From: Aigarchaeota archaeon
GTDB lineage: Archaea > Thermoproteota > Nitrososphaeria_A > Caldarchaeales > Wolframiiraptoraceae
DNA: 64,000 nucleotides
Direction of reading: 5' to 3'
Assembly (NCBI GenBank): GCA_025058515.1
Contig: JANXDW010000026.1
Location: forward strand, 18,332 to 82,331
The notes under the pieces are model-generated. The model had not been told where the DNA came from. It did no database searches and saw only the letters and a list, made by a program, of their open reading frames with translations. The position numbers and the translations under genes were made by a program. Shown here piece by piece: positions 13,672 through 54,511 of this stretch (position 1 is the first letter of the stretch; every line of letters begins with the position of its first letter).

Positions 13672-16371
13672 CTATTTTTTCTTTGATTCTTTATACAGTT
13701 TTCTTAGTACGTATTTTAAGATTCCTCCATGCTTGAAGTACTCAACCTCTATATTGGTATCTAGTCTAGCGATAACGTTGAATACTATCTCGGAACCATC
13801 TTCTCTTCTAGCTATAACTCTTAGCTTTTTCCTTGGATAAAGTCCTTCCTCGATCCCTTCTATATCATAAACCTCTCTACCAGTTAATCCAAGAGTTTTC
13901 CAATTCTTACCTTCTTCAAATTGTAGAGGCAGTATTCCCATGCCGACTAAGTTACTCCTATGTATACTCTCAAAGCTCTCTGCTAAAACTGCTTTAACCC
14001 CAAGTAGGTATGGTCCCTTAGCCGCCCAATCTCTTGAACTACCTGCACCATACTGTTTACCGGCTAAAACGATCGCGGATACTCCTTCCTTCATGTATAG
14101 TTGAGATGCATCATATATTCTTAATAATTCTCCACTCGGATGATGGATCGTCCAGCCTCCTTCCTTCTCTGGTGTTAATAGATTTCTTAACCTAAGATTA
14201 TCGAATGTACCTCTTATCATTACTTCATGATTCCCTCTTCTAGACCCATATGTATTAAAGTCTTCAGGCTTAACGCCTCTCTCTATAAGATATTTTCCAG
14301 CAAGACTATCTACAGGTATTGATCCAGCTGGAGAGATGTGGTCTGTAGTTATTCGGTCGCCTAACATTACGAGAACTCTAGCATTCTTAATATCTTTAAG
14401 TGGAGGTGGATCAAGTGTAATATCATCGAAGAATGGAGGCCTCCTGATATAAGTAGACTTTTCATCCCAAGGATATAGGTCGCTCTTCTCTATAGAGATC
14501 TCTCTCCACTTAGGACCACCTTCAAATATCTTACTGTACTTCTTTCTGAAGTCGGATGGTTTGATCACATTCTTCACGACTTCTTTCACTTCTTCACTTG
14601 ATGGCCAGATATCTCTAAGAAATACTGGATTATTATTCGGGTCTCTTCCAATAGGCTCGTTAAGTAGATCAATATCTATTCTTCCCGCAATAGCGTATGC
14701 AACTACTAGTAGAGGCGAGGCCAAGAAACTTCCTCTAGTCAGAGGATGAATTCTACCTGCAAAATTCCTATTACCACTCAGTATACTTACAACATATAAT
14801 TGGTGTGTCTTTATAGCGTTAGAGATATTTTGTTGGAGAGGTCCACTATTCCCGATACAAGTAGTACATCCAAATCCAACGACATGGAATCTAAGAGCTT
14901 CTAAGTATTGTAATAGACCAGCCTTCTTAAGATACTCTACTACGACTGGGCTTCCAGGTGCAAAGCTTGTCTTAACCCATGGTTTAGTAGATAAACCTCT
15001 TTCAACTGCTTTTTTAGCTAAGAGTGCTGCACCAATCATTAAGCTAGGGTTAGAGGTATTGACGCAGCTTGTTATAGCTGCTATGACTATATTTCCATGA
15101 GTTAACTCTGTCTTTACTCCATCGAATTCTACTAATGCTTTTGGAGAGGTCTCTATGCTTAAACCCCTCTTTCTAGCATCTTCTAGATACTCGTTTAAGA
15201 TTTGGATGAATCTCTCTTTCACATTTGATAAAGGTATCCTATCCTCTGGGTTGAGTGGTCCCGCTATTGTAGGCTCAACCTCTCCTAGATCTATCGTAAT
15301 TAATTCTACATAATCTGGTGTAGGAGATGATTCATCTCTAAATATCCCTATCTTCTTTGAATATCTCTCAACAAATCGTATATGCTCACGGCTTCTAGCT
15401 GTAATCTCAAGGTACCTGAGTACTTCTCTATCTATCGGGAAGTAGGCTGTCCTAGGTCCATACTCAGGGGACATATTAGAGATCGTAGCTCTATCTGGTG
15501 CAGATAGCTTCTCCACCCCAGGACCTATAAACTCAACTATCTTATCTACTAGATTCTTCTTTCTTAGAATCTCTGTAATCGTTAAGACTATGTCTGTTGC
15601 ATTTACTCCTTCTTTAGGTTCTCCTTCAAGCCTAACCCCTACAACTTCAGGTATCGAGATATAGTATGGTTGTCCAAGCATTACCGCCTCTGCTTCTATC
15701 CCTCCAACACCCCATCCGAGGACACCGATAGATGAGACCATAGTTGTATGTGAGTCTGTTCCTATAACGGTATCTGGAAATGCTACGAGACCTTCACGAA
15801 TTCTTTCAAGATGTACAACCTTTGCAAGATACTCAAGATTAACTTGATGTATTATCCCAAATCCTGGAGATGCCACCTTCAAGTTCTTGAATGCTTTCTC
15901 AGCCCACTTTAAGAAAGAATATCTTTCAATATTTCTCTCCATCTCTAGATTGATATTTTGATATAATGCGTAGCTTGTACCGTAGTAGTCTACTTGGACT
16001 GAGTGGTCGATTATTAAATGTACAGGTACAAGTGGGTTAACAATTTTAGGATCTCCACCTAGCTTCTTCATAGCATCCCTCATAGCGGCCAAGTCTACGA
16101 GTGCGGGAACGCCTGTAAAATCTTGTAATATCACTCTACTGGGTAGATAGGGGATCTCTCTACCAATGTTATTCCTCCAATCCAATATCGCTTTAACATC
16201 TTCTTCTGTAACTATCTTTCCATCATAATTTCTTAAAAGGTTCTCGATCAAGATTCTTATAGAGTATGGGATAGATTCTATGCTTACACCACTGATCTTA
16301 TTCAAGTTCCATATTGTAGCCCTCCCCTTATATGTCCTCAACACGTCTCTAACGGATGAGAAGTCTATCAT
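13672..16371 (-). CDS. acn: Aconitate hydratase (aconitase A family)
   Basis: 899 aa with Fe-S cluster Cys ligands (ITSCVNTSNP, GFGCTTCIGNSG) and a C-terminal swivel domain. Confidence 0.9.
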   Translation of the reverse strand: MIDFSSVRDVLRTYKGRATIWNLNKISGVSIESIPYSIRILIENLLRNYDGKIVTEEDVKAILDWRNNIGREIPYLPSRVILQDFTGVPALVDLAAMRDAMKKLGGDPKIVNPLVPVHLIIDHSVQVDYYGTSYALYQNINLEMERNIERYSFLKWAEKAFKNLKVASPGFGIIHQVNLEYLAKVVHLERIREGLVAFPDTVIGTDSHTTMVSSIGVLGWGVGGIEAEAVMLGQPYYISIPEVVGVRLEGEPKEGVNATDIVLTITEILRKKNLVDKIVEFIGPGVEKLSAPDRATISNMSPEYGPRTAYFPIDREVLRYLEITARSREHIRFVERYSKKIGIFRDESSPTPDYVELITIDLGEVEPTIAGPLNPEDRIPLSNVKERFIQILNEYLEDARKRGLSIETSPKALVEFDGVKTELTHGNIVIAAITSCVNTSNPSLMIGAALLAKKAVERGLSTKPWVKTSFAPGSPVVVEYLKKAGLLQYLEALRFHVVGFGCTTCIGNSGPLQQNISNAIKTHQLYVVSILSGNRNFAGRIHPLTRGSFLASPLLVVAYAIAGRIDIDLLNEPIGRDPNNNPVFLRDIWPSSEEVKEVVKNVIKPSDFRKKYSKIFEGGPKWREISIEKSDLYPWDEKSTYIRRPPFFDDITLDPPPLKDIKNARVLVMLGDRITTDHISPAGSIPVDSLAGKYLIERGVKPEDFNTYGSRRGNHEVMIRGTFDNLRLRNLLTPEKEGGWTIHHPSGELLRIYDASQLYMKEGVSAIVLAGKQYGAGSSRDWAAKGPYLLGVKAVLAESFESIHRSNLVGMGILPLQFEEGKNWKTLGLTGREVYDIEGIEEGLYPRKKLRVIARREDGSEIVFNVIARLDTNIEVEYFKHGGILKYVLRKLYKESKKK

Positions 16372-16507
16372 ATATCATCATCATCGATACTCTCTAAAAT
16401 ACTTTAATCTAGAACTCTGTGAAGATTTATTATAAGAATCTTAGGGTAAGAATGTTCTACTCAGCAACTTAAAACTTTAATTATCATCTAGTAAAAGTTA
16501 TCTTGGA

Positions 16508-18280
16508 ATGTTATTCTCTCAGCTTGTTGAGTACTACGAGAAGATAGAAGCTACGACAAGTAGGATAGAGATGACCAATCTACTCGTAGATCTCTTGAAG
16601 AAAAGCCCACCAGATATTATCGATAAGATTGTATATTTAACAGTTGGTGAGATATATCCTCCATTCATAGGCATCGAGCTAGGTGTAGCCGATAAACTAG
16701 CTCTTAGAACTATAAAGATTGCCTCAGGACGGTCTGAGAAGCTTATTAGAGAAGAGTATAGTAGACTTGGAGATGTAGGTCTAGTTGGAGAAAAATTGCT
16801 ACAGACCCGTAGCCAGATTACACTACATACAAGAGAGCTAACAGTATCCGATGTATATCATTCATTAGAAAAGATCGCTAAAACATCTGGAGAAGGAGCT
16901 ATGGAGACAAAAGTACAGATCTTGGTAGGATTATTATCTTCAGCTACTCCTAAAGAGGCTAAGTATATTTTAAGAATAGTTACAGGAAAGCTAAGATTAG
17001 GAGTTGCAGATATGACGATCCTCGATGCTCTTGCAATCTTGTATGGAGGTGGAAAAGAGACTAGAGAAATATTTGAGAGAGCATATAATATCACATCAGA
17101 TATAGGATATATTGCAAAGATCGCCGCTCTCGAAGGTCTTGAAGGAATTAAGAATATAAAGATCTCTATTGGAAGACCTGTAAGACCCATGCTCGCTGAA
17201 CGCCTCTCTTCAGCTGAAGAGATAATCTCAAAGATTGGTGGAAAATGTTTAGCAGAGTATAAGTACGATGGTGAAAGGATGCAGATCCACAAGAAAGATT
17301 TGGATGTTATGATCTTCTCTAGGAGGCAAGAGAACATCACTTCACAGTACCCCGATGTTGTCAAGCTTGTCCAAGAAAACATTCTAGCCGATGAAGCTAT
17401 CTTAGAATGTGAAGCTGTAGCAATAGATCCTGAGACTTATGAGACTTTACCATTCCAAGAACTGATGCATAGAAAGAGAAAGCATGAGATAGAGAAAGCA
17501 GTTGAAGAATATCCTGTGAATCTATACTTCTTCGATATACTCTATCTAGATGGTAGAGACTTAACATTAGAACCATTAGAAGAGAGAAGAAGAACACTAG
17601 AAAGAATAGTGAAGACAGGTGATAGAATATATCTAAGTAAAGCAATATCTACTGATAATCCATTAGAATTAGAGAAGTTCTTCCACGAAGCGATTGAGAA
17701 TGGATGTGAGGGATTGGTTGTAAAGAGTTTAGGAAAAGAAGCAATATATAGAGCAGGAGCAAGAGGGTGGCTCTGGATTAAATATAAACGAGATTATAAG
17801 AGTGAGATGATAGATACAGTAGATCTAGTCGTAGTAGGAGCATTCTATGGAAGAGGTAGGAGAAGTGGAAAATATGGAGCACTCTTGATGGCTGCATACG
17901 ATCCTGAGAAAGATGTCTTCCCATCTGTCTGTAAAGTTGGAAGCGGTTTCACCGATGAAGACCTTGAGAAGCTTCCAGCATTACTTGAACCATATAAGAT
18001 CCCTCATAGACATGCTAGAGTCATAACAGGGGTGGAGACAGATGTCTGGTTTGAGCCTAGGCTGGTATTAGAGATCATAGGTGCAGAGATAACTTTAAGC
18101 CCAATACACCGTGCAGGTTGGAATCTTATAAAAGAAGAATCAGGATTAGCGATTAGATTCCCGAGATTTACTGGAAGATATAGATTGGATAAATCTCCAG
18201 AAGATTGTACAACGGTAGATGAAATCATTAAGATGTATAGGTCACAGTTGAAGAAGATAATGGAAGCATCACCTACATAA
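16508..18280 (+). CDS. lig: ATP-dependent DNA ligase
   Basis: 590 aa. Adenylation motif I, AEYKYDGERMQIH (KxDG). Confidence 0.9.
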   Translation: MLFSQLVEYYEKIEATTSRIEMTNLLVDLLKKSPPDIIDKIVYLTVGEIYPPFIGIELGVADKLALRTIKIASGRSEKLIREEYSRLGDVGLVGEKLLQTRSQITLHTRELTVSDVYHSLEKIAKTSGEGAMETKVQILVGLLSSATPKEAKYILRIVTGKLRLGVADMTILDALAILYGGGKETREIFERAYNITSDIGYIAKIAALEGLEGIKNIKISIGRPVRPMLAERLSSAEEIISKIGGKCLAEYKYDGERMQIHKKDLDVMIFSRRQENITSQYPDVVKLVQENILADEAILECEAVAIDPETYETLPFQELMHRKRKHEIEKAVEEYPVNLYFFDILYLDGRDLTLEPLEERRRTLERIVKTGDRIYLSKAISTDNPLELEKFFHEAIENGCEGLVVKSLGKEAIYRAGARGWLWIKYKRDYKSEMIDTVDLVVVGAFYGRGRRSGKYGALLMAAYDPEKDVFPSVCKVGSGFTDEDLEKLPALLEPYKIPHRHARVITGVETDVWFEPRLVLEIIGAEITLSPIHRAGWNLIKEESGLAIRFPRFTGRYRLDKSPEDCTTVDEIIKMYRSQLKKIMEASPT

Positions 18281-35946: not shown

Positions 35947-36363
35947 ATGGTGAGGGCTGGAAAGACTTCTATAATAGAGTACTTAAAAGAAAAGGCTAGT
36001 AGCTTAAGAACTGAGACAGCTATAACTATATACTCAATATTCTTAATATTCTTCATCATATTTCTTCTAAGTGGTTTGATTTATTCTCTTACTACTGAGG
36101 AACCTATACCGATAGCTTTTCTACCAACTGGATCGATCAGAGTATTTCTCTGGAGTATTAATGCACAGAGCCATGCAGAGACTATCGTTATAGCTCTATA
36201 CTATTTAATGGGTGGAGGGGGAGTCTTACTGTACGTAAATGCTATTACCAAACTACGTAATCCTAGGACTACCAAGTACATGCTCTTCTTTAGCTTCTTA
36301 CTCATACTACTAGCTGGAATAGGGATCTATTCAGCATATATCTCTAAGTTTACTCCACCTTAG
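35947..36363 (+). CDS. Small polytopic membrane protein, unknown function
   Basis: 138 aa with 3-4 TM helices. Its 3' end overlaps the convergent KaiC/RadB-like gene by 14 nt. Confidence 0.35.
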   Translation: MVRAGKTSIIEYLKEKASSLRTETAITIYSIFLIFFIIFLLSGLIYSLTTEEPIPIAFLPTGSIRVFLWSINAQSHAETIVIALYYLMGGGGVLLYVNAITKLRNPRTTKYMLFFSFLLILLAGIGIYSAYISKFTPP

Positions 36364-37036
36364 AACTAGGTTCACCTACACCACTTTCATTAATGATGAA
36401 ATACGCTGGACCAGTTTTTTCAGGCTTCTCTAAAAATAATTCTCTAAAACCTTTAGAGCCTATTGTCAACTTGATAATCCATCTTGCCCAGTGGCTCAAT
36501 ATTCTGTATGCTACAGCTTTTCTATTTTCTTGCTCAGGTAGATCGTGTACTTGACCTATCAATACTACAAGAGATTTATCTCTTGTAGTTAGCTCAGATA
36601 ACATAGCAACTTGCATGGCCAATCTCTTATAGATTGGTAGATCAGACCTCACTTCTCCATACATCTCTATCCTATGTTGATGTGTAAAATCGTCTAATAC
36701 TATTATGTCGAATAGTTTCTCTGAATTGTAGAGATGTAGGATAAAGTCTTCTTGATCTTGGAAATCTTGAATCATTCTTATTGATAGCTTTGAAGGATCT
36801 AGTGACCAAGATTCTAAGATTTGTAGAACTCTTTGAGGATGAAGTCTTATAGAACAATCTAGGAAGAGTGGTCTTAAACCATTTCTTATAGCTGAAGCAC
36901 ATAGGGTTAAAGCTAAACTCGTCTTTCCAGACTTCTCTTCACCGTATATGAAGTAGAGTTCTCCTAGTTTGAATCCTCCGAACAATAATCTATCGATTCC
37001 TTTAACATAGGTTGGTACAAGATCTAAGGTTGACAC
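36350..37036 (-). CDS. RecA-superfamily ATPase, KaiC/RadB-like single domain
   Basis: GIDRLLFGGFKLGELYFIYGEEKSGKTSLAL (Walker A) and Walker B IIVLDD. 228 aa. Confidence 0.55.
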   Translation of the reverse strand: MSTLDLVPTYVKGIDRLLFGGFKLGELYFIYGEEKSGKTSLALTLCASAIRNGLRPLFLDCSIRLHPQRVLQILESWSLDPSKLSIRMIQDFQDQEDFILHLYNSEKLFDIIVLDDFTHQHRIEMYGEVRSDLPIYKRLAMQVAMLSELTTRDKSLVVLIGQVHDLPEQENRKAVAYRILSHWARWIIKLTIGSKGFRELFLEKPEKTGPAYFIINESGVGEPSSKVE

Positions 37037-37176: not shown

Positions 37177-37767
37177 TTATGAAAGCATATCTAGACCATC
37201 TAGCCAAACCTCTTCACATATCTTAGTCTCTGGACCATGACCTGGATAAACAATAGTATCTGGAGATAAACTCCTAGAGATATTCTTTAGGCTTACCACC
37301 ATCTTACCCATAGAATGAGGATTTGATATTCTTCCATAACCTCCTTTTAGAAGAGTATCTCCTGAAAATAGAATCTTCAATTCTCTTACTGTAAAACATG
37401 TAGACCCATCTGTGTGTCCAGGTGTGTGGAGTACCACGATACTAAGATTTCCTACTTTAACCTTCTGCATATGTTTATGTAAGATGTCAGGCTTAGTTTC
37501 ACTGTACTGTTCATTAAGAAGAATAAGGTCATCTCTGTGAATTGAGATCTCTCCACTAAATCTTGATTTGACCTCTTTTAGAAATTTAACATGTCTTGGA
37601 TGCACATGAGTTATCAAGATATACTTAACATCAACATCTTTCAATACATCTTCTAATAGGTAGGTGGGAGCTGCTGCATCTATTATACACGCTTCACCAT
37701 CATCTATCAATAAGTAAGAATTCGTATCATTAAATGTAATTTTAAATAGATTCTTCAACCTACTCAT
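37177..37767 (-). CDS. Metallo-beta-lactamase-fold hydrolase
   Basis: ILITHVHPRHV (HxHxxH variant), downstream HTPGHTDGS, and a C-terminal His. Confidence 0.6.
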   Translation of the reverse strand: MSRLKNLFKITFNDTNSYLLIDDGEACIIDAAAPTYLLEDVLKDVDVKYILITHVHPRHVKFLKEVKSRFSGEISIHRDDLILLNEQYSETKPDILHKHMQKVKVGNLSIVVLHTPGHTDGSTCFTVRELKILFSGDTLLKGGYGRISNPHSMGKMVVSLKNISRSLSPDTIVYPGHGPETKICEEVWLDGLDMLS

Positions 37768-37987: not shown

Positions 37988-39190
37988 CTATAAATATTTA
38001 TCTCTTGATAAATTCCTATTGAGAAAACAGGAGGGGTCAGAAGAGAGCGGATCTCCAGAGTATGCGTATGATCTTGCACGGCAGCCTCCACATACTTCTC
38101 TTAAATTACATTCTCTACAAAATCCTTTCAAGTTTCTTCTATCTCTAAAAATATTGAATACCTCTCCTCTCCATATTTCTTCCGCATTCTTTTCTAAGAG
38201 ATTTCCAGTATTAATTGGTAGGAAGGGGCATGGCCATACATCTCCATTTGGTTTAATATAGAACATTCCCCTTCCAGCTATACATCCTTTAAAGATTAGT
38301 GAGGCGAGCCTCGGATTTAAATTCTTCTTTAGAGCTAAGTATGCGAAGAATTCAGGTAGGCCTACAGGTATTATGATAGGCTTAACCGTGCTCTGGATAT
38401 TTTCTAAAGTTTTTATTACGTAATAAAATTCACTTATGGATAATGCTTCATTGATGAGCTGTTCTCCTCTTCCAGAAGGCATTAACTGATATAGTAGTGT
38501 TACATGTGCTTCAAGCTTATCTGAAATCTCCAGTAATTGCTTAAGCTGGTTTAAGTTTCTCCTCGATAACGTTATATTTATCTGAGTGTACATTTTTTCT
38601 CTGCGAGCATTTATTATTCCTTTAATGGCTGATCGCAATGCCCCCCTGACCCCTCTATAATCATCATGCTGGTCGGGAGAGGTAAAGTCTATGCTTACCG
38701 CAACGCCTTCAACACCATTCTCAACCATCTTCCTAACCACATCTCTAGTGATTAGTACACCGTTAGTAGCAATTACTATGCTAAACCCCATATTTCGAGC
38801 ATACCTGACAAGGTCGAGTAGATCATTCCTTATAAGAGGTTCTCCACCTGTAAAGACGAGCATACGGAAATCATCAACATGTGCAAGGTTCTCTATAATC
38901 TTCTTTGCTTCTTCTGTACGTAATTCTCTATCCCCTTTTTCGCCACCTCTTGCATGGCAGTGGACGCATCTTAAATTGCAGTTAGATGTGACTTCGTAAA
39001 CTGGGTGTACTGGGTATCCGAAGCATCCTAGACCAATGGCCCCAGCTGCAACGTTTAAGAGAGTCTTAATGTATCTGAGCCAGTATCCTAAACCTCTCCA
39101 TCCCGTTATCTCTTTAAACGTTGTAAGTGTCATTGCTTGTCGCATTATAAGTGAGGGCGGAATATATGGAGGTAAAACAAACCTATTCAT
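37988..39190 (-). CDS. Radical SAM enzyme with C-terminal SPASM domain (AhbD/PqqE-like architecture)
   Basis: CNLRCVHCHARG (Cx3Cx2C) preceded by VYEVTS, TIM-barrel core, and a C-terminal Cys-rich tail CPFLP...CRECNLREVCGGCRARS. Confidence 0.7.
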   Translation of the reverse strand: MNRFVLPPYIPPSLIMRQAMTLTTFKEITGWRGLGYWLRYIKTLLNVAAGAIGLGCFGYPVHPVYEVTSNCNLRCVHCHARGGEKGDRELRTEEAKKIIENLAHVDDFRMLVFTGGEPLIRNDLLDLVRYARNMGFSIVIATNGVLITRDVVRKMVENGVEGVAVSIDFTSPDQHDDYRGVRGALRSAIKGIINARREKMYTQINITLSRRNLNQLKQLLEISDKLEAHVTLLYQLMPSGRGEQLINEALSISEFYYVIKTLENIQSTVKPIIIPVGLPEFFAYLALKKNLNPRLASLIFKGCIAGRGMFYIKPNGDVWPCPFLPINTGNLLEKNAEEIWRGEVFNIFRDRRNLKGFCRECNLREVCGGCRARSYAYSGDPLSSDPSCFLNRNLSRDKYL

Positions 39191-39201
39191 AACCGTAATC
39201 T

Positions 39202-40131
39202 TTACATTACACTTCCGATTACGTATGAAATTGACAATAGCATCGTCGTTAAAGCATATGTTATGATTGTGCCAGCCATTGCTGGTTTCAGTTTCTGGGG
39301 ATACTCGTAATATCTAATACAAGTAGATATACTTCTAACTGTTAATGGGATTGTTGCAAGAGCGATAAGACCTATCAATGGAATAATCTCCATAAAGACT
39401 CCTAATAATATGGAGATATAGCTAAATACCATTAAGAAAATGTAGAAACTTCTAGAATTTTCTCTACCTAGCCTAACTACAAGGTTATTCTTTCCGATGG
39501 ACTTGTCCGCTCGATAATCTGGGAACTCGTTAATCCATATTACAGCAGTTATCAGAGCTGCTGGTACTAGTGAAGGGATTAGAAAGCTGGTTGATGGAAG
39601 ACTGCCCGTTTGAACATAATAACTACCGAAAGGTATTAGTATACCATAGTTTAACCCTATCATCACTTCTCCTAGTCCTCTGTAAGCCCACATCAGTGGA
39701 GGCGCAGTGTAGAATGCACCTGCGAGGAATCCAATAATAGTCAGAGGGATAATGTATAGACCCACTGTCACTGTAAAGTACACCGCTATAGTGGAAGCGA
39801 TTATCCATGAAACTAACCCCATCTTAAAAACACTTGAAGGCTCAAGTAGCTTTCTTGGAAGTATACGGCTCCCCGCATTAAACGGTGTAATATCTTCTTC
39901 CATAATCACAACATCTACACCACTCCTATAGTCAAAGAACTCATTAAAGGTATATGTCCCGATCATTACAAATATGATTCCCGCTAATGTTAATAGAAAG
40001 TTGAGCATATTAAATACTCCTAGATCATAGAATGCTATGCACGTACCTAGGATAACTGGCGGAATACCAGCTAAAAAGAACTTGACTCTAATGGCCTCAA
40101 GCCAGACTCGTATCTTGAAGACCATAGACAT
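39202..40131 (-). CDS. UbiA-family aromatic prenyltransferase, MenA-like (1,4-dihydroxy-2-naphthoate polyprenyltransferase-like)
   Basis: Polytopic, 309 aa. Asp-rich motif NEFFDYRSGVD matches the MenA-type N(D/E)xxDxxxGxD spacing. A second Asp-rich region is DYRADKSIGKNN. Confidence 0.55.
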   Translation of the reverse strand: MSMVFKIRVWLEAIRVKFFLAGIPPVILGTCIAFYDLGVFNMLNFLLTLAGIIFVMIGTYTFNEFFDYRSGVDVVIMEEDITPFNAGSRILPRKLLEPSSVFKMGLVSWIIASTIAVYFTVTVGLYIIPLTIIGFLAGAFYTAPPLMWAYRGLGEVMIGLNYGILIPFGSYYVQTGSLPSTSFLIPSLVPAALITAVIWINEFPDYRADKSIGKNNLVVRLGRENSRSFYIFLMVFSYISILLGVFMEIIPLIGLIALATIPLTVRSISTCIRYYEYPQKLKPAMAGTIITYALTTMLLSISYVIGSVM

Positions 40132-40399
40132 CTAGCACTCAGTACCTTCCCGGAGAATTTATCCTTAACTCTGAAACCAAATTTTAAACTTTTAAATTAC
40201 TGAATCTCCGTTATGTTGGATCTTGTTAAATCTCAGATTAACGATGATTATCTATTCTCTACCAATTTTACTATATTTTCAATTGAAGGCAATTTATCAG
40301 TTCATAATCTTCTACTACTTAAAGAACCATGTATTTAAAATTCGCCAATTCGATTGTCCATTACCTTCTTCACCCTTTCTAGAGTGGCCTAGATATAGT

Positions 40400-40520
40400 T
40401 GCGGGGGGTGGGATTTGAACCCACGAACCCCTACGGGATTCCCCACTTTAATTCAGGGGTTCTCATCTCTTATTTGAGAACCTGAACCCTGCGCCGTTGA
40501 CCAGGCTTGGCTACCCCCGC
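40400..40520 (-). tRNA. tRNA-Leu (anticodon CAG) with two predicted introns
   Basis: Minus-strand sequence GCGGGGG-TA-GCCAAGCCTGGTCAACGGC-G-CAGGG-TTCAGG[about 21-nt insert]CCCTG-[about 15-nt insert]-TCCCGTAGGGGTTC-GTGGGTTCAAATCCCAC-CCCCCGC-A. The acceptor and T arms are perfect, the D arm is Leu-type, the variable arm is long, and the discriminator is A. Confidence 0.8.
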
Positions 40521-47171: not shown

Positions 47172-48233
47172 TTGAAGATTGTGAAGATAATCCAGATCGA
47201 GGTCTCTTCAAGATGTAACGCAGACTGCTTGATGTGTCCTAAATCTAGTTATAAAGATCTATGGAGTTTTGGAGATATGGATCTTGAAGATTATACTAAG
47301 ATAAGTAGTTGTTTCGATGAATGCGATATCGTATGGTTGCAAGGATGGGGGGAGCCATTGCTCTCTAAAAATATTTACGAGATGGTTAGATTGGCTGGGA
47401 GAAGAGATACTACAGTAGGTCTTACAACAAATGCTATGCTATTAAATAGTGAACGATCGAGGAGATTGATAGAGAATGGTGTTAAAGTCTTATCTATATC
47501 GATTGCAGGTGGAACGAGAGAGACTCATGAGAGTATTAGGAGGGGGACCAGCTTTAATAAAATTATTGAGAATGTTAAAGCATTGACACAGTTGAGGAGA
47601 AATGTAAATGCAAGAGATTTAAAGGTGATCTTCACATTCTTGAGAATTAAACAGAATATTGCTGAGCTTCCAAGAGTTGTCGAGCTTGCATCTGAGCTAG
47701 ATGTAGACCAAGTTATCGGAACGAACATAGACTATATACCGACTAAAGAACACTACGATATGAAGATCTTTTCAGAGGGTAAAGCTTCTAAAGAGTATTT
47801 AGAGATAATAAGATCGAGTGAAGAAAGAGCAAGAGAGTTAGGGGTCTCTATCTTCAACTATCCTATAGAGATGGAGGAAGTCATAGTATGCCCTGAAGAC
47901 CCTACTAGAGGATTATTCATCTCTCACGATGGAAGCGTCTCACCATGTGTTTACTTAAATGTACCTTTAAGATCTCATACAATTCCAAGATATTTCAAGA
48001 ATACTCAATACGATGTTCCTAAACTAATTTACGGGAACATAAAGGTAGAGAGGTTAGAAGAGATTTGGAGAAAAAAAGAATATATGGAATTTAGGGATGT
48101 TTATAATGAGAGAGTAAAGTCTTCGAAACCTACTGTGAGCTTCATTCAATCTTTACTTGAAGTTAGAGAGGTACATAGGATTCCCCAGATACCTGAACCG
48201 TGCAGAACTTGTTATAAAGCTTATGGAGTTTAA
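47172..48233 (+). CDS. Radical SAM enzyme with C-terminal Cys-containing (twitch/SPASM-like) extension
   Basis: CNADCLMCPK (Cx3Cx2C), GGEPLL-like WGEPLL, and C-terminal Cys residues (CPEDP...SPCVY...CRTC). A TTG or GTG start. Confidence 0.55.
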   Translation: MKIVKIIQIEVSSRCNADCLMCPKSSYKDLWSFGDMDLEDYTKISSCFDECDIVWLQGWGEPLLSKNIYEMVRLAGRRDTTVGLTTNAMLLNSERSRRLIENGVKVLSISIAGGTRETHESIRRGTSFNKIIENVKALTQLRRNVNARDLKVIFTFLRIKQNIAELPRVVELASELDVDQVIGTNIDYIPTKEHYDMKIFSEGKASKEYLEIIRSSEERARELGVSIFNYPIEMEEVIVCPEDPTRGLFISHDGSVSPCVYLNVPLRSHTIPRYFKNTQYDVPKLIYGNIKVERLEEIWRKKEYMEFRDVYNERVKSSKPTVSFIQSLLEVREVHRIPQIPEPCRTCYKAYGV

Positions 48234-48966: not shown

Positions 48967-50040
48967 CTATCTCCATTTAAATTGTGTAGTAGTTCTAAAT
49001 GTTGGTAGAGAGAAGATGAAATCATCAATATGCTTATCTGTGAAAGGTATCTCTGTTAAGGTGAAGAATCTCTCCCACCCAATCCTCTTTATCCAATCTC
49101 CTATCCTCTCACCCTTCTTAGCGTTCTTAATCCATGCATCTATAACTTTTTTAGCTGCTTGAACACATTCTGGCCATCTAGGAGGATTATTTGGAAGATA
49201 TGGTATTGCAAGTCTAGAGAATTCTGGAGGACCTCCAGCTACAGCGTTCCCTCCAACCCACATAGATAAGCAGTCATATTTTGGATTGTGTATAAACATC
49301 CCTGGGCAGACTGTGTAGCAGTTTCCACAATACATGCACCTCTCCTCATTAACTATTACTGATTTCTTTTCTGGTGCAGGTCTGATAGCTGCTGTAGGAC
49401 AGCTGGCGACAAGAGTAGGTATCTCGCAAAGCCTACTAACTATATCATCATTAACTACTGGAGGCTTTCTATGCATTCCAACAAATGCAAGGTCTGAACA
49501 GTGTACTGCTCCACACATATTTAAGCAGCATGCAATAGCTATCTTTAGTTTACCTGGTAGATCATCTCTAACAAAGTAATCGTATAGTTCATCGTAGAGA
49601 GCCTTGGCAAGTCCTGGAGCATCTATTATGGCCGTATGGCAGTGAACCCATCCTTGAGTATGTATTATAGCTTTCAAGGATCGACCAGTTCCTCCCACAG
49701 GCCAACCTCTCTCTCTTAATTCTCTTAGTAATCCATCCAGTTTATTCTTATCGGTAACTATGAACTCTACATTATGTCTACTCGTAAACTTCACGTATCC
49801 ATCAGAATATTTATCAGCGATATCGCATAGCTCTCTAACGAAGTAGACGCTAACTATCTTTGGTATCGCTGCTCTAACCATGTAGACTTCATCACCATTC
49901 ATAGAGACGTGTTTTATTATACCTGGAGCAACATATTCGTGGTATCTCCATTTACCGTAATTCTTCATTAATACTGGGTGGACCATCTCTCTATAATGCG
50001 GAGGACCAATATCTGTTATGTACTTCTTCTCTCCAGACAT
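48967..50040 (-). CDS. dsrB: Dissimilatory sulfite reductase beta subunit
   Basis: N-terminal TDIGPPHYREMVHPVLMKNYGKWRYHE, siroheme/Fe-S Cys residues, and an inserted ferredoxin domain (CMYCGNCYTVCP). Confidence 0.85.
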   Translation of the reverse strand: MSGEKKYITDIGPPHYREMVHPVLMKNYGKWRYHEYVAPGIIKHVSMNGDEVYMVRAAIPKIVSVYFVRELCDIADKYSDGYVKFTSRHNVEFIVTDKNKLDGLLRELRERGWPVGGTGRSLKAIIHTQGWVHCHTAIIDAPGLAKALYDELYDYFVRDDLPGKLKIAIACCLNMCGAVHCSDLAFVGMHRKPPVVNDDIVSRLCEIPTLVASCPTAAIRPAPEKKSVIVNEERCMYCGNCYTVCPGMFIHNPKYDCLSMWVGGNAVAGGPPEFSRLAIPYLPNNPPRWPECVQAAKKVIDAWIKNAKKGERIGDWIKRIGWERFFTLTEIPFTDKHIDDFIFSLPTFRTTTQFKWR

Positions 50041-50044
50041 CTTC

Positions 50045-51223
50045 TTACTTCACCTCCTCAAGTTCTTCAGGACTCCAGAAGTAGTATGGATTAGCTCTAG
50101 GAGCATAAACCATCTGAGGAGCCGGTGGTTGACCGATAGCTTTCAAGAAATTCCTCATACCAACCCTATATACTAATTCTCCTACCCTCTCTCTAGTTTT
50201 AGCATTCTCATCCCACCAGTCGAGAATCTTTCTAGTCAACTCCTTTAATTCTCTATATGGTTTGTCAGCCTTCATAAATGGTACGATAACCCATCCGAGA
50301 AATGCTCCCTGCAGTATAGTTGCCTTCCCTCCTAAGAGTATTGATACACCTCTATCATCTCCTGGGAGAATGGCCTTGGGTAAAGCTGATAGACATTTCA
50401 TACATCTTGTACAATCTTCTGGTATGACTCTGAGTTCTTTACCATCCCATTCAAGAGCTTGTGGTGGACATCTAGCAGCTACAGCCGCTATATTCACACC
50501 CTTCTTAGCATATTCTCTTACAGCCTCTTGATCTATCTTTATAGAATCTCTCCATGTTCCAATTATTGCTAAATCTGCACGGGCTAGTGCTGCTACACAA
50601 TCGTTAGGACATCCAGCTATCTTAATCTTGAATTTGTATGGGAATCTAGGTCTATGTATCTCATCTTGAAGTTCCATGGTTAACTCATGGTAGATGTCTA
50701 GAGTATCGATACATGACCATTGGCAGAAAGCTGGTCCACCACAACAACTGAGAGTTCTCACATCACCTCCAGAGCCTCCTAGATCGAATCCTATTGAAAT
50801 CAAGTCTTCAAAACAAGGTTGGAGGCTCGCTGTCTGAGCTCCTAGTAAGATTATGTCTCCTGTAGAACCGTGTAGATTTATGAATCCGGAGCCATGCTTC
50901 TCCCATACATCACAAAGCTTTCTTAATGCTTTGGTTGAGTAAAACCACCCAGCGGGCTGTGCTACTCTAAGTGTATGAACTTCAGGGGTTTGCATAACTT
51001 CAGGTGGAAGATCACTATATCTGCCGATTACGCCTCCACCATACCCTCTTACACCAACTATACCTCCATGCTTCCAGTGGGTTACTCTCTCTACATAAGA
51101 TCTCTCCAATTGTAGTAAGATATTCTTCGAGTAAGGTTTTACCGCCGCCATCCGCTTCATCTCTGTTACGAAACTAGGCCATCGACCTTTCTCTAATTCA
51201 TCTAAGAGAGGTGTCTCAGACAT
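50045..51223 (-). CDS. dsrA: Dissimilatory sulfite reductase alpha subunit
   Basis: N-terminal [16 protein letters not shown], nitrite/sulfite reductase Cys residues, and a ferredoxin-like CTRCMKC. Confidence 0.85.
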
Positions 51224-51474
51224 TTTCTACTCGACTACATTTATTTCGTTAGTCGTATATATTCTTTCTTATTGAAAAATTTCTTTCTAATTGAAAAATC
51301 CTTCCATCTAAAGAATAACGTAGTTATAGAAGAAGAGCAATCACATATATAGATTGAAGGTAAAAACCACACCACAAATGTAAATTATCAATCTAGTCCA
51401 TGAATAGTATAATGGGATTTAATATTTTCTCTTCTCTCAGTTTACCTATCTCAAATCATCCATAATCATCTATC

Positions 51475-52869
51475 CTAGTATACTAGTGAGTTGGCTAGTA
51501 TCTCGCTTAACCCTGAAACATTTATGCTAGAGTTGTAGTAGCTAACCGTATCTAGAAACTGTCTTTTACAGTTTGCACATATCGTTACCAAAGTTGAGGC
51601 ACCGGTATTTTTAACCTGCTCCATCTTCAATCTTCCATAAGTCTTCATCCTGAACTCTGGGAAATTGTACTTATTCATTAAAGCAAATCCACCTCCACCT
51701 CCACAACAGTAATTGTACTCTCTATTCGGAAACATCTCTCTAAAATCTTTACATGAAGCAGCTAATACTCTTCGAGGCTCATCATATATCCCACCGCATC
51801 TTCCAATCTTACATGAATCATGAAAAGTAACGGGTGCGGGATTCTTATCTTTATCAAGTCTCAATCTTCCTTCTCTTAAAAACTTATCGTATAATTCTAC
51901 TATATGGATTACCTTGAATGGTCTCTCTTCAGGGGGGATTAAGTCTTTTATCAAGTGTCCGAGAACATCGTAAGAATGTCCACATTCTCCGACGACTACA
52001 TATTCTGGTTTAAGTTTCTTGAAAGTTTCTAAATGAGCTTTAATTACACGTAATAAGTCTTTATCACTATAGAATAGACCGTAGTTTACGTTATCAAATA
52101 CTCCGGTTTTCGGAGAGTTAAATGTCCAATCTTCATTCACGTAATTCATTATCTCAACGATACCTCTTATCGTATCGAGAAAAGATAGATAATCTCCAGC
52201 ATTGTTTATTATTAGATATTTTGCACCAACTTTATCGACTGGAATCTCTACGTTAACATTTTTTCTATTCTCCTCAATCTCACTCTTCACGAAATCTAAT
52301 ATATTGATTAAAGCATCATACGGTATCTTTGGAGCACTGCCAAAATTAATCTGATTCTCCACTCCTTCTTCTTTTAACTCATCTGGAACAATTCCTAACT
52401 CAGCTAATATCTTCCTCGCCTCCCTCATTATCAATCCATTATCTAAACCGAATGGACAAGCCAATACACATCTTCTACAGATTGTACACCTGTAGGCAGC
52501 CTCAGATAATGCATTGATATCTTGTTCAGTGGCTTCTTTAGCACCTACTAGTCTTCCGAATAGTTTCCCACTCCACGTAAAATGTTTCTTGTAAATCTTT
52601 CTTAGAAGGTCGGCTCTGTAGAGTGGACTATAGATCTTTTGTCTTCCACTTCCCACATATACTGGGCAGGCCTCAGCACATGTTCCACAATGAGTACATG
52701 CTTCAAGGCTTAATTTTAATGGTAGGAGGAATGCCCAGTTATTCTCTTTACTCAATATTTCTCTAAATGCTTTGAGGAATCTATCAACCTTAGGTTCTTG
52801 TGGACGGACCTTTGCATCTGAGAGACCTCTATACTCATCAAATAATTTTTCTAAATTCATAGGCTTCAC
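51475..52869 (-). CDS. dsrK: DsrK/HdrD-like Fe-S oxidoreductase (two [4Fe-4S] motifs plus CCG domains)
   Basis: CTHCGTCAEACP, CTICRRCVLACP, and a CCG-type Cys cluster YNYCCGGGGGFAL. Confidence 0.75.
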   Translation of the reverse strand: MKPMNLEKLFDEYRGLSDAKVRPQEPKVDRFLKAFREILSKENNWAFLLPLKLSLEACTHCGTCAEACPVYVGSGRQKIYSPLYRADLLRKIYKKHFTWSGKLFGRLVGAKEATEQDINALSEAAYRCTICRRCVLACPFGLDNGLIMREARKILAELGIVPDELKEEGVENQINFGSAPKIPYDALINILDFVKSEIEENRKNVNVEIPVDKVGAKYLIINNAGDYLSFLDTIRGIVEIMNYVNEDWTFNSPKTGVFDNVNYGLFYSDKDLLRVIKAHLETFKKLKPEYVVVGECGHSYDVLGHLIKDLIPPEERPFKVIHIVELYDKFLREGRLRLDKDKNPAPVTFHDSCKIGRCGGIYDEPRRVLAASCKDFREMFPNREYNYCCGGGGGFALMNKYNFPEFRMKTYGRLKMEQVKNTGASTLVTICANCKRQFLDTVSYYNSSINVSGLSEILANSLVY

Positions 52870-53549
52870 CTCCTAATATGTCTTTGATCAAGAATTATTT
52901 TTTGTCCATAGAATATTGCTATCGGATGTATGAGGGTTTTAAAAGGTAGGTACATCATGTAAACTTGTGCAAATAGTATGTGGATTAAGAATAATGTATC
53001 TGCAGGTGGGAGTACAGGGTTCAAGGTTATAATGCCTTGGATCCAGCTCCATACTTGAATAGAGTCTATCAACTTGAACATCCGAATATATTGTCCTAGA
53101 AGTAATGTGACTATAAGTAATCCTAGAGCTAGATAATCTGAAAAATAGGATTCTGTTTTCTTATCGTAGATCCTTCTTATGAGAAAACCGAAAGAGCCGA
53201 TTGCTGCGAACATTCCTGCCGCACTTCCTATCTCGTATTCGAGAGGAAGATGAGGCATGAAGATATACTTAGCGTGGAGTGAGAGGCTTACGATTAATCC
53301 TATGTGAAACATCCATGCTAGAGTGAATATAAGTTTATCAAATTTTCTTGGACCAGGTAAGGAGAAGATCCTCTTTCCAATAGTGATGAATATGCTTGCG
53401 AGGTTTTTCTTTGCAGGGAATATAGCCCACATCACTGGTCTAGGGAGGAACATGAATTTGAAGAAGTTGTATCCTAATGCGATTCCAAAGGTCGCCATCA
53501 TGATGTAAGGCAAGACTACCCCAATTATAAACAACGTAAAATCATACAT
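52866..53549 (-). CDS. dsrM: DsrM/HdrE/NarI-like membrane b-type cytochrome subunit
   Basis: 227 aa with 5 TM helices and conserved His in helices. Its stop overlaps the dsrK start. Confidence 0.55.
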   Translation of the reverse strand: MYDFTLFIIGVVLPYIMMATFGIALGYNFFKFMFLPRPVMWAIFPAKKNLASIFITIGKRIFSLPGPRKFDKLIFTLAWMFHIGLIVSLSLHAKYIFMPHLPLEYEIGSAAGMFAAIGSFGFLIRRIYDKKTESYFSDYLALGLLIVTLLLGQYIRMFKLIDSIQVWSWIQGIITLNPVLPPADTLFLIHILFAQVYMMYLPFKTLIHPIAIFYGQKIILDQRHIRR

Positions 53550-53776
53550 CTAGAGATCACCCTTATACTTAAATCTGCAATATGCAAATCTAGTTGACAC
53601 TTTTATTAAGCTTTTATCTTTTCTAAGCATAGTTCATATGGAGGATAAAGAGTCACATATTTAAATTTATGTTTATTACAATGGTTATTGTAATGTGTTA
53701 GACCGCAGATCTCCAGCATTCAGAATGATTATTATCTATCTAAAGAATAGCAATTCATGAATCGTGATCATCATTA

Positions 53777-54511
53777 TTATTCCAACCATCTCAACTTCTC
53801 CCTTAATGTTACTACTTCTCCTAGAATTATGACAGCTGGAGGTTTAACTTGATATCTCTGAGAAATCTCTACAATATTCTGTAAGTCTCCAGTTAGTACT
53901 CTTTGTTCTCTTAAAGTTGCATTCTCTACTATAGCGATAGGAGTAGTTGGAGGAAGACTTGAAGATGCTATTTTTACGATCTTCTCTAGGTTAGAGACGC
54001 CCATTAATATTATCGTAGTATCAACTGATGAGAATATCTTCTTTAAGTAATCTAATTCATCTACGCATCCCTCCTTTCTATGCCCCGTGACAATAGCTAT
54101 AGAAGATGAATATTCTCTATGGGTTACCGGTATCCCGGCATAGGTTGGACCAGCTAACGCTGAAGAGATACCGGGAATTATCTCGTAGGATATACCTGCT
54201 TCTTTAAGTACTTCACATTCCTCTCCACCTCTACCAAATAACATTGGATCACCATTCTTCAACCTTACAACATTATCGTATTTTCTAGCCTTCTCGACTA
54301 ATAGTTTATTTATCTCTTCCTGCTTCCAACTTTCACCTACTTCTTTCCCAACACAGATAAACTCTTTAGCATTAACAGCATATTCTAATATCTTCTCATT
54401 GACTAATCTATCATATATCACGACATCAGACTTCTGTAAGATCTTTAATCCTTTAAGTGTTATCAACTCAGGGTCTCCTGGACCTGCACCAACTAGATAG
54501 ACTTTACCCAA
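53777..54511 (-). CDS. cobA: Uroporphyrinogen-III C-methyltransferase (SUMT)
   Basis: VYLVGAGPGDPELITLKG and a tetrapyrrole methylase fold. 244 aa. Confidence 0.85.
   Translation of the reverse strand: MGKVYLVGAGPGDPELITLKGLKILQKSDVVIYDRLVNEKILEYAVNAKEFICVGKEVGESWKQEEINKLLVEKARKYDNVVRLKNGDPMLFGRGGEECEVLKEAGISYEIIPGISSALAGPTYAGIPVTHREYSSSIAIVTGHRKEGCVDELDYLKKIFSSVDTTIILMGVSNLEKIVKIASSSLPPTTPIAIVENATLREQRVLTGDLQNIVEISQRYQVKPPAVIILGEVVTLREKLRWLE

Follow-up and report, generated by a model that had tools for sequence, protein, structure and literature searches.

Radical S-adenosylmethionine (SAM) enzymes and UbiA-type prenyltransferases already meet in one oxygen-independent route to quinones, the futalosine pathway, in which the radical SAM enzymes MqnE and MqnC act together with the UbiA-type enzyme MqnP. 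Here we describe another pairing of the two enzyme classes, found in a 64,000-nucleotide (nt) stretch of DNA from an Aigarchaeota archaeon metagenome-assembled genome (contig JANXDW010000026.1, positions 18,332 to 82,331 of the forward strand; hereinafter the window). Both genes of the pair lie on the minus strand. The first gene (39202–40131) encodes a UbiA-superfamily membrane prenyltransferase of 309 amino acids (aa), related to MenA and UBIAD1, which prenylate 1,4-dihydroxy-2-naphthoate or menadiol. The second gene (37988–39190) encodes a 400-aa radical SAM/SPASM enzyme that resembles AhbD and NirJ2. The TAA stop codon of the UbiA gene is followed by an 11-nt intercistronic spacer (agattacggtt; 39191–39201) and then by the ATG start codon of the radical SAM gene, an arrangement that agrees with a preliminary description of the window. 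NCBI names the two proteins only generically ("radical SAM protein", MCS7126017.1; "prenyltransferase", MCS7126018.1), and literature searches found nothing on this gene pair. Both enzyme classes are well known; the pairing, and a variant of the radical SAM enzyme with an N-terminal extension, are the new part.

Conservation of the gene pair in Archaea and Bacteria

The sample of loci was obtained by scanning one genome per GTDB species, which added 80 loci, and both genes were placed at each locus by tblastn. A locus was counted as testable if it contained a family member and enough upstream sequence. The UbiA gene adjoins the radical SAM gene in 49 of the 51 testable loci. Because the adjacency recurs at this frequency, it is more than chance. 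Specifically, the UbiA gene lies directly upstream and on the same strand in 44 loci (duplicates included) and is divergent in two (L014 and L092). The estimated spacers between the two genes lie between −8 and +137 nt, most of them below 50 nt.

The archaea that bear the pair are Aigarchaeota, Fervidicoccaceae, Acidilobus, Methanomethylicia, Geothermarchaeota, Thermoplasmata, and Methanosarcinales; the bacteria are Syntrophales, Desulfomonile, Aminicenantes, Chloroflexota, and Phycisphaerae. Thus, the two genes keep their neighbourhood in related genomes, as the reading in the preliminary description required, in 46 of 48 testable loci without duplicate contigs and in two domains of life. Full-length homologs of the radical SAM protein, including its first 60 residues, were found at 45–69% identity in Aigarchaeota/Nitrososphaeria, Geocrenenecus, Fervidicoccaceae, Stetteria, Thermoplasmata, Baldrarchaeota, Geothermarchaeota, Chloroflexota, and Phycisphaerae. 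Look-ups of the exact proteins place the UbiA gene directly upstream in a Fervidicoccaceae contig, Thermoplasmata, Chloroflexi, and Phycisphaerae, and all other neighbours differ among them. The two genes overlap by 4 nt in each of the Chloroflexi and Phycisphaerae pairs. Two further look-ups, which started from UbiA proteins, led to the radical SAM gene as well, one in Acidilobus sp. 7A (complete genome) and one in a Geothermarchaeota contig.

No third gene family common across lineages emerged from all-against-all clustering of open reading frames (ORFs) of 61 loci or from a Pfam scan of 111 flanking ORFs. The remaining neighbours of the pair are unrelated from lineage to lineage, and the Pfam scan gave scattered families only. 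A conserved block in Syntrophales consists of housekeeping genes (TrpRS, ScpA/B, a pseudouridine synthase, and HU). The two genes, back to back in the window and in some fifty further genomes of archaea and bacteria, therefore make up an undescribed two-enzyme module.

The two enzymes and their relatives

The radical SAM protein contains a PF04055 domain (residues 65–220) and a SPASM domain (PF13186, residues 303–362). Residues 64–78 read VYEVTSNCNLRCVHC and contain the CX3CX2C radical SAM cluster motif (C71, C75, and C78; 38957–38980, minus strand), which is invariant in the family. The SPASM region (38027–38284, minus strand) has seven cysteines (C303, C321, C358, C361, C367, C370, and C388), which are kept in at least 90% of family members and are predicted from the sequence to serve two auxiliary Fe-S clusters. 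The N-terminal and SPASM motifs quoted in the preliminary description are thus all present, as is the MenA-type NxxxDxxxGxD spacing that it had noted in the UbiA protein.

Comparison with NCBIfam models gives top scores that are all below the cutoff, namely AhbD (TIGR04545; 274.1 bits, cutoff 500), NirJ2 (247 bits, cutoff 500), and TIGR04053 (230 bits, cutoff 395). The AhbC, NirJ1, MftC, and PqqE models score the protein lower than these three, and its relatives reach 220–295 bits on the AhbD model. The profile search proposed earlier thus ranks AhbD best among AhbD, NirJ, and PqqE, and places the protein inside no modelled family. As in AhbD, a CX3CX2C motif is combined with a SPASM auxiliary-cluster domain. 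Other than that, the protein departs from the AhbD pattern of about 340 aa, no N-terminal extension, and association with ahbA/B/C, having 400 aa and a 64-aa extension. Sequence matches in the PDB are generic relatives, including PqqE, GDGT-MAS, and BlsE. The AlphaFold2 (AF2) model is confident, with a predicted local distance difference test score (pLDDT) of 83, and its fold neighbours are PqqE, SuiB, SkfB, BlsE, and anSME. These are generic SPASM neighbours, and the fold search is not diagnostic.

The extension comprises residues 1–64 (38999–39190, minus strand) and is predicted to form three helices. Residues invariant throughout the extension-bearing family (n = 49) are W31, W37, G50, C56, G58, H62, E66, the CX3CX2C cysteines, and a number of residues of the core. 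All four outgroup sequences lack W31, W37, G50, C56, H62, and E66. The window protein has every invariant residue of the extension, together with the UbiA gene 11 nt upstream, and is thus a member of the family. Residues 41–61 are moderately hydrophobic, with a mean Kyte-Doolittle value of about 1.4, which is below that of a typical transmembrane helix. A phmmer search with residues 1–64 against 1.84 billion representatives returned 18 matches, all of them at the N-terminus of proteins of the present type with at most 450 aa. Neither a fusion of the extension to another domain nor a UbiA–radical SAM fusion was seen among these matches, the 64-aa query giving the search low sensitivity. We found no curated NCBIfam or Pfam family for the extension or for the pair.

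In a neighbour-joining tree, the extension-bearing radical SAM proteins form a single clade, and the nearest outgroups, a Bathyarchaeia clade and a 347-aa AhbD-like paralog from Methanomethylicia (L018), lack the extension. The paralog gene (15811–16854 of its locus, minus strand) lies 6.6 kb from the Methanomethylicia pair. Because its product scores only 302 bits on the AhbD model, a cutoff of 500 bits may be unduly stringent for archaea of these lineages. The Bathyarchaeia clade consists of AhbD-like radical SAM/SPASM proteins of 390 aa without the extension (275 bits on the AhbD model; L050, L051, and L054, positions about 6935–9200), and the gene upstream of them on the same strand encodes a Laminin_G_3 (concanavalin-like) protein of about 320 aa, with no UbiA gene. 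These Bathyarchaeia relatives (L050–L055, L058, and L065), considered as family members, were rejected for lack of the extension and for the upstream Laminin_G_3 gene, and were used as the outgroup. The preliminary description had offered an AhbD-like heme synthase as one of two possibilities for the radical SAM protein. The shortfall on the AhbD model, the extension, the separate clade, and the linkage to a UbiA gene rather than to ahb genes all count against that identity.

The UbiA protein matches PF01040 over residues 24–260 with 103.5 bits. Two Asp-rich motifs were read from its sequence, N63-EFF-D67-YRS-G71-V-D73 (39913–39945, minus strand) and N201-EFP-D205-YRA-D209-KSIG-K214 (39490–39531, minus strand), with the spacings N63-x3-D67-x3-G71-x-D73 and N201-x3-D205-x3-D209. 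Among 41 UbiA partners of radical SAM genes, D67, D205, D209, and K214 are invariant and D73 is present in 39. The strong NCBIfam matches are all MenA models, each below its cutoff (NF004751, 137.4 bits vs 264; TIGR00751, 94.7 bits vs 102.15, a shortfall of 7.5 bits). The window protein therefore has the UbiA fold and both Asp-rich motifs of MenA intact, and falls outside MenA by curated score (TIGR00751 and NF004749–54). Positive controls from Archaeoglobus (126.9 bits) and Thorarchaeota (118 bits) exceed the TIGR00751 cutoff.

The preliminary description had kept this protein apart from DGGGP synthase and heme O synthase, and the NCBIfam and PDB sequence searches bear this out, grouping it with MenA and UBIAD1. 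Specifically, NCBIfam gave no match to heme O synthase (CtaB/CyoE) or DGGGP synthase at E ≤ 0.01, the ChlG model scores 29.6 bits vs 137 for MenA, and human UBIAD1 is the sole PDB sequence match (E = 6e-13). The AF2 model is confident and all-helical, with pLDDT of 93.

The UbiA partners split into two clades, and each type is found beside a radical SAM gene. Clade A includes the window protein and those of other Aigarchaeota, Fervidicoccaceae, Acidilobus 7A, Methanomethylicia, one Thermoplasmatota, one Geothermarchaeota, and Hecatellales. Its sister clade scores above the MenA cutoff of 102 bits, with 127 bits for Archaeoglobus and 118 bits for Thorarchaeota. Clade B includes most Thermoplasmata, other Acidilobaceae, another Geothermarchaeota, and all of the bacteria. 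Pairwise distances among the UbiA proteins and among the radical SAM proteins are correlated (Mantel r = 0.57, with none of 2000 permutations as high), a value from which shared phylogeny is not removed.

Proposed pathway and competing explanations

We tentatively propose, with somewhat less than even confidence and by analogy with known enzymes, that the pair forms a two-step pathway which is tied to the membrane, needs no oxygen, and yields a prenylated aromatic lipid of quinone type in modified form. In the first step, the UbiA enzyme would use its two Asp-rich, Mg2+-binding motifs to move a polyprenyl group from polyprenyl diphosphate onto an aromatic acceptor, as its homology and intact motifs suggest. 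The acceptor would probably be of the hydroquinone or naphthoate type, as with MenA and UBIAD1. In the second step, the radical SAM partner would cleave SAM at the CX3CX2C cluster to give a 5'-deoxyadenosyl radical, which would take a hydrogen atom from the head group of the prenylated product or of its precursor, and the two SPASM auxiliary clusters would carry off the electron. The outcome, by analogy, would be oxidative tailoring, for example an AhbD/NirJ-type decarboxylation or dehydrogenation. The closest radical SAM families, AhbD, NirJ2, AhbC, and NirJ1, all perform oxidative side-chain chemistry on ring systems, which counts in favour of this proposal. The N-terminal extension, with Cys56, His62, and a moderately hydrophobic helix, may hold the radical SAM enzyme at the membrane or at the UbiA enzyme, or may aid binding of the lipid substrate. 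The resulting compound, a modified prenylated lipid resembling a quinone, would be used by anaerobes.

Several neighbours of the pair favour an isoprenoid-quinone context. A polyprenyl synthase gene lies directly downstream of the pair in L047, and genes for an SdhA-like (succinate dehydrogenase/fumarate reductase) flavoprotein and a molybdopterin oxidoreductase lie directly upstream in L045 and L026, respectively. Genes for HdrD-like CCG iron-sulfur proteins are near the pair in L002 and L052, and a pterin-binding methyltransferase-like gene forms an apparent three-gene operon with it in L002/L003. Genes of another kind, a LarB-like AIR-carboxylase (AIRC) domain gene directly upstream of the pair in Methanosarcinales (L041, 1543–2313), another directly upstream of the lone radical SAM gene in ANME-1 (L042, 7161–7934), and LarA and HypE-like AIRS genes nearby in Thermoplasmata (L002), were set aside as a functional clue, being confined to a few euryarchaeal loci.

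A number of observations weigh against the proposed pathway. The quinone-related neighbours are sporadic and are no proof of the substrate. Head-group genes of the men, mqn, or ubi type were found neither in the window nor in the flanks of related loci, and two loci from Methanosarcinales and ANME-1 (L040 and L042) have the radical SAM gene without a UbiA gene. An MqnA/D hit (PF02621) beside the radical SAM gene in L040, considered as a link to menaquinone, is an ABC-transporter binding protein instead. The fold search with the UbiA model places DGGGP synthase and UBIAD1 at equal E-values. The clade-B UbiA proteins score only 50–60 bits on TIGR00751 and 46–57 bits on the ChlG/BchG models; because their MenA scores are low and chlorophyll synthase models nearly equal them, a quinone acceptor is not secure for this clade. 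Finally, some carriers (Fervidicoccaceae and Methanomethylicia) belong to groups that, to our knowledge, are not known for respiratory quinones. The other possibility in the preliminary description, a radical SAM modification of a naphthoquinone or other prenylated cofactor, finds support in its general form, as a radical SAM step on a prenylated cofactor. Its naphthoquinone part is tentative, the window UbiA protein lying narrowly, and the bacterial and Thermoplasmata partners widely, under the MenA cutoff.

Some of the same observations suit other explanations. The closest radical SAM families, here with NirJ added, all act on tetrapyrroles, and the AhbD match is full length (274 bits). This would fit a tetrapyrrole module, in which the AhbD/NirJ-like enzyme decarboxylates or shortens the propionate or acetate side chains of an intermediate derived from heme or siroheme and the UbiA enzyme then prenylates the macrocycle, as heme O synthase and chlorophyll synthase do, to give a membrane-anchored porphyrinoid in anaerobes. 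The low score of the probable AhbD paralog in Methanomethylicia, and hence a cutoff that may be too strict, would suit such a module, as would the ChlG/BchG scores of clade B, little under their MenA scores, and the ability of the window organism to make sirohydrochlorin-type precursors, indicated by a uroporphyrinogen-III methyltransferase gene. However, that gene is 14 kb from the pair and grouped with dissimilatory sulfite reductase (dsr) genes, no locus examined has ahb or hem genes beside the pair, and the window UbiA protein is matched by no heme O synthase model and far better by MenA than by ChlG models. We consider a tetrapyrrole module unlikely. A small probability likewise attaches to chemistry on the lipid tail, in which the UbiA enzyme would load an isoprenoid onto a non-quinone acceptor and the radical SAM enzyme would couple, cyclise, or cross-link the chain in the manner of GDGT-MAS. 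GDGT-MAS (7tol) is the second-best PDB sequence match to the radical SAM core (E = 4e-13) and has 25% identity in the fold search, but the match is limited to the generic radical SAM core, residues 66–175. By fold, DGGGP synthase and UBIAD1 fit the UbiA model equally well, yet the DGGGP synthase models do not match the window sequence. The hydrophobic N-terminal helix would suit a lipid substrate and the pair is present in fermentative lineages; its presence in bacteria as well speaks against tail chemistry.

The two proteins might also be a true AhbD and a true MenA, housekeeping enzymes that work independently and are neighbours as cofactor suppliers to one respiratory chain, for example one with DsrMK. 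AhbD and MenA are indeed the top curated families of the two proteins, the window UbiA protein misses the TIGR00751 cutoff by only 7.5 bits, and DsrK-like and DsrM-like genes are present in the window. Nevertheless, the genes remain tightly linked, with overlapping stop and start codons, across Archaea and Bacteria as their other neighbours change, and the radical SAM protein has a unique invariant extension that separates it from extension-less AhbD-like proteins, one of which is encoded 6.6 kb from the Methanomethylicia pair. In addition, the clade-B UbiA proteins are far under the MenA thresholds, and in no other locus were dsr genes noted in the vicinity of the pair. Of the competing explanations this one is weakened most, by the linkage in two domains, by an extension specific to the family, and by the distinct AhbD-like paralog near one pair, and we regard it as improbable. 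Among solved structures the SPASM fold is nearest to PqqE, SuiB, SkfB, and anSME, which might suggest a maturase of peptides or proteins, similar to those of ribosomally synthesized and post-translationally modified peptides (PqqE, MftC, and sactisynthases), working with a prenyltransferase. This is very improbable. Peptide-maturase hidden Markov models score far under the AhbD/NirJ models and leave the protein outside these families (MftC, 155 bits vs cutoff 265; PqqE, 128 bits vs 381), and a conserved small ORF or precursor gene accompanies the pair in none of about 50 loci. We also know of no UbiA-family enzyme that acts as a peptide prenyltransferase.

The pair may make a prenylated redox lipid not known so far, or may provide an oxygen-independent route to a menaquinone-like quinone that bypasses the known late steps, in many anaerobic archaea and bacteria. 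The radical SAM enzyme would then be a new functional subfamily, with the cysteine-bearing extension adapting an AhbD-type enzyme to a membrane lipid. We put this forward as a possibility, with clear reservations. Quinone and isoprenoid-lipid biosynthesis is poorly understood in uncultured anaerobes such as TACK archaea, Thermoplasmata, Syntrophales, Aminicenantes, and Chloroflexota, and a two-gene module found in both domains is a testable candidate for a missing oxygen-independent step toward a membrane redox carrier or lipid. If true, the proposal would extend the AhbD/NirJ branch of radical SAM enzymes by a new reaction, and the lipid made by the pair could serve as a biomarker. Experiments are within reach, as Acidilobus sp. 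7A and Stetteria hydrogenophila carry the pair and are in culture.

Surroundings of the pair and comparison with known systems

The UbiA gene is preceded by an AT-rich intergenic region of about 270 nt (40132–40399, minus strand), beyond which lies an intron-containing tRNA gene, and 220 nt separate the radical SAM gene from a downstream gene for a metallo-beta-lactamase-fold protein. Because of this spacer and tRNA gene on one side and this gap on the other, the pair looks bicistronic. The operon promoter is probably in the AT-rich region, where TTTAAAA-type boxes were read by eye about 45–60 nt before the ATG. The translational coupling named in the preliminary description is putative. No clear Shine-Dalgarno match was found in the 11-nt spacer before the ATG of the radical SAM gene, and what supports the operon organisation is the conserved tight spacing alone, including overlaps of 1 to 8 nt in other genomes. 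Two genes directly downstream of the pair, at 36350–37036 and 37177–37767 (both minus strand), encode a glyoxalase-II-like metallo-beta-lactamase-fold protein and a RadB-like RecA-family ATPase; neither is kept beside the pair in other genomes.

The tRNA gene (40400–40520, minus strand) lies between the TerC/Alx and UbiA genes and matches Rfam RF00005 with 43.6 bits (gathering score 29), despite which ARAGORN reported zero tRNA genes in the window. Inspection by eye shows an acceptor stem (GCGGGGG/CCCCCGC), an anticodon stem (CAGGG/CCCTG), and a long variable arm, with position 37 followed by an intron of some 22 nt. It is probably a gene for tRNA-Leu(CAG).

A dissimilatory sulfite reductase cluster is present at 48967–54511 of the window (minus strand). 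It contains dsrAB (48967–51223; dsrB 489 bits and dsrA 528 bits, both over the cutoff), a DsrK-like gene (51475–52869; 299 bits vs cutoff 400), and a gene for a weak DsrM-like membrane protein (52866–53549; 30 bits vs cutoff 300), followed by the uroporphyrinogen-III C-methyltransferase gene (53777–54511). dsrAB in Aigarchaeota were reportedly noted earlier, by Hua and co-workers in 2018. The preliminary description had seen in DsrMK a menaquinone-dependent system that the pair would fit. This fit is weak: the dsr genes are 9.8–14 kb away, behind unrelated genes for TerC/Alx, a P-type ATPase, a CPBP protease-like protein, a YeiH-like transporter, and another radical SAM protein, and the Pfam scan of the 111 ORFs flanking the other loci gave no dsr-like, molybdopterin-type, or Sdh-type match. 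The other radical SAM/SPASM gene (47172–48233, plus strand; 353 aa, TTG start) lies between the YeiH-like transporter gene and dsrB. As a candidate for the true AhbD of the window it was rejected, its best match being TIGR04317, the radical SAM maturase of a tungsten-cofactor oxidoreductase (179 bits, cutoff 380), against only 74 bits on the AhbD model.

The MenA-passing sister clade of UbiA clade A is found without a radical SAM gene. In a Thorarchaeota locus (L089, 6001–8804), the UbiA gene of this clade is accompanied by genes for PNPOx-like proteins, a polyprenyl synthase, a geranylgeranyl reductase, and an HdrD-like CCG protein, and a second locus (L088, 6001–7494) also has PNPOx-like neighbours. 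Other members from Thorarchaeota and further uncultured lineages (P0173, P0184, P0233, and P0197) are fused N-terminally to a PNPOx-like domain or lie beside PNPOx_N proteins, and the neighbours include a DUF7530+PNPOx_N protein. These loci look like an uncharacterised prenyl-lipid gene cluster.

Compared with known systems, the pair shares single features with each. The futalosine enzymes MqnE and MqnC are not known to contain a SPASM domain, and MqnP resembles UbiA rather than MenA, unlike the enzymes of the window, where no men or mqn head-group genes were found in the whole 64 kb; likewise, mqn genes were seen beside the pair in none of the loci examined. GDGT-MAS/Tes (7tol) likewise is a radical SAM enzyme, carries additional Fe-S clusters, and has isoprenoid lipids of the membrane as substrates. 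However, the likeness is confined to the radical SAM core; GDGT-MAS/Tes has another architecture, 526 aa, and no UbiA partner.

AhbD and NirJ2 (TIGR04545/TIGR04055) have the same combination of a radical SAM domain with a seven-cysteine SPASM domain, and the alignment to the hidden Markov model pairs residues 65–390 of the window protein with model positions 4–337. The window protein differs from them in its score (274 vs 500 bits), its additional invariant N-terminal extension of about 60 aa, and its separate clade, and its conserved partner is a UbiA prenyltransferase, not ahbA/B/C. MenA and UBIAD1 have the UbiA fold and the N-x3-D-x3-G-x-D and N-x3-D-x3-D motifs in common with the window UbiA protein. 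Unlike MenA, the latter is under every curated cutoff, belongs to clade A rather than to its cutoff-passing sister, lacks men or mqn context, and is obligately paired with a radical SAM gene.

The PNPOx-partnered UbiA proteins of the MenA clade are about 43% identical to the window UbiA protein, and have in common with it a PF-x-GGSR loop motif, the second motif INEFPDY-x-AD, and a dedicated redox-enzyme partner. Their partner, however, is a flavin-type PNPOx-like protein, sometimes fused N-terminally, and not a radical SAM enzyme. By analogy, the flavin-type partner of one clade and the radical SAM partner of the other could be alternative enzymes for an equivalent redox step beside prenyl transfer.

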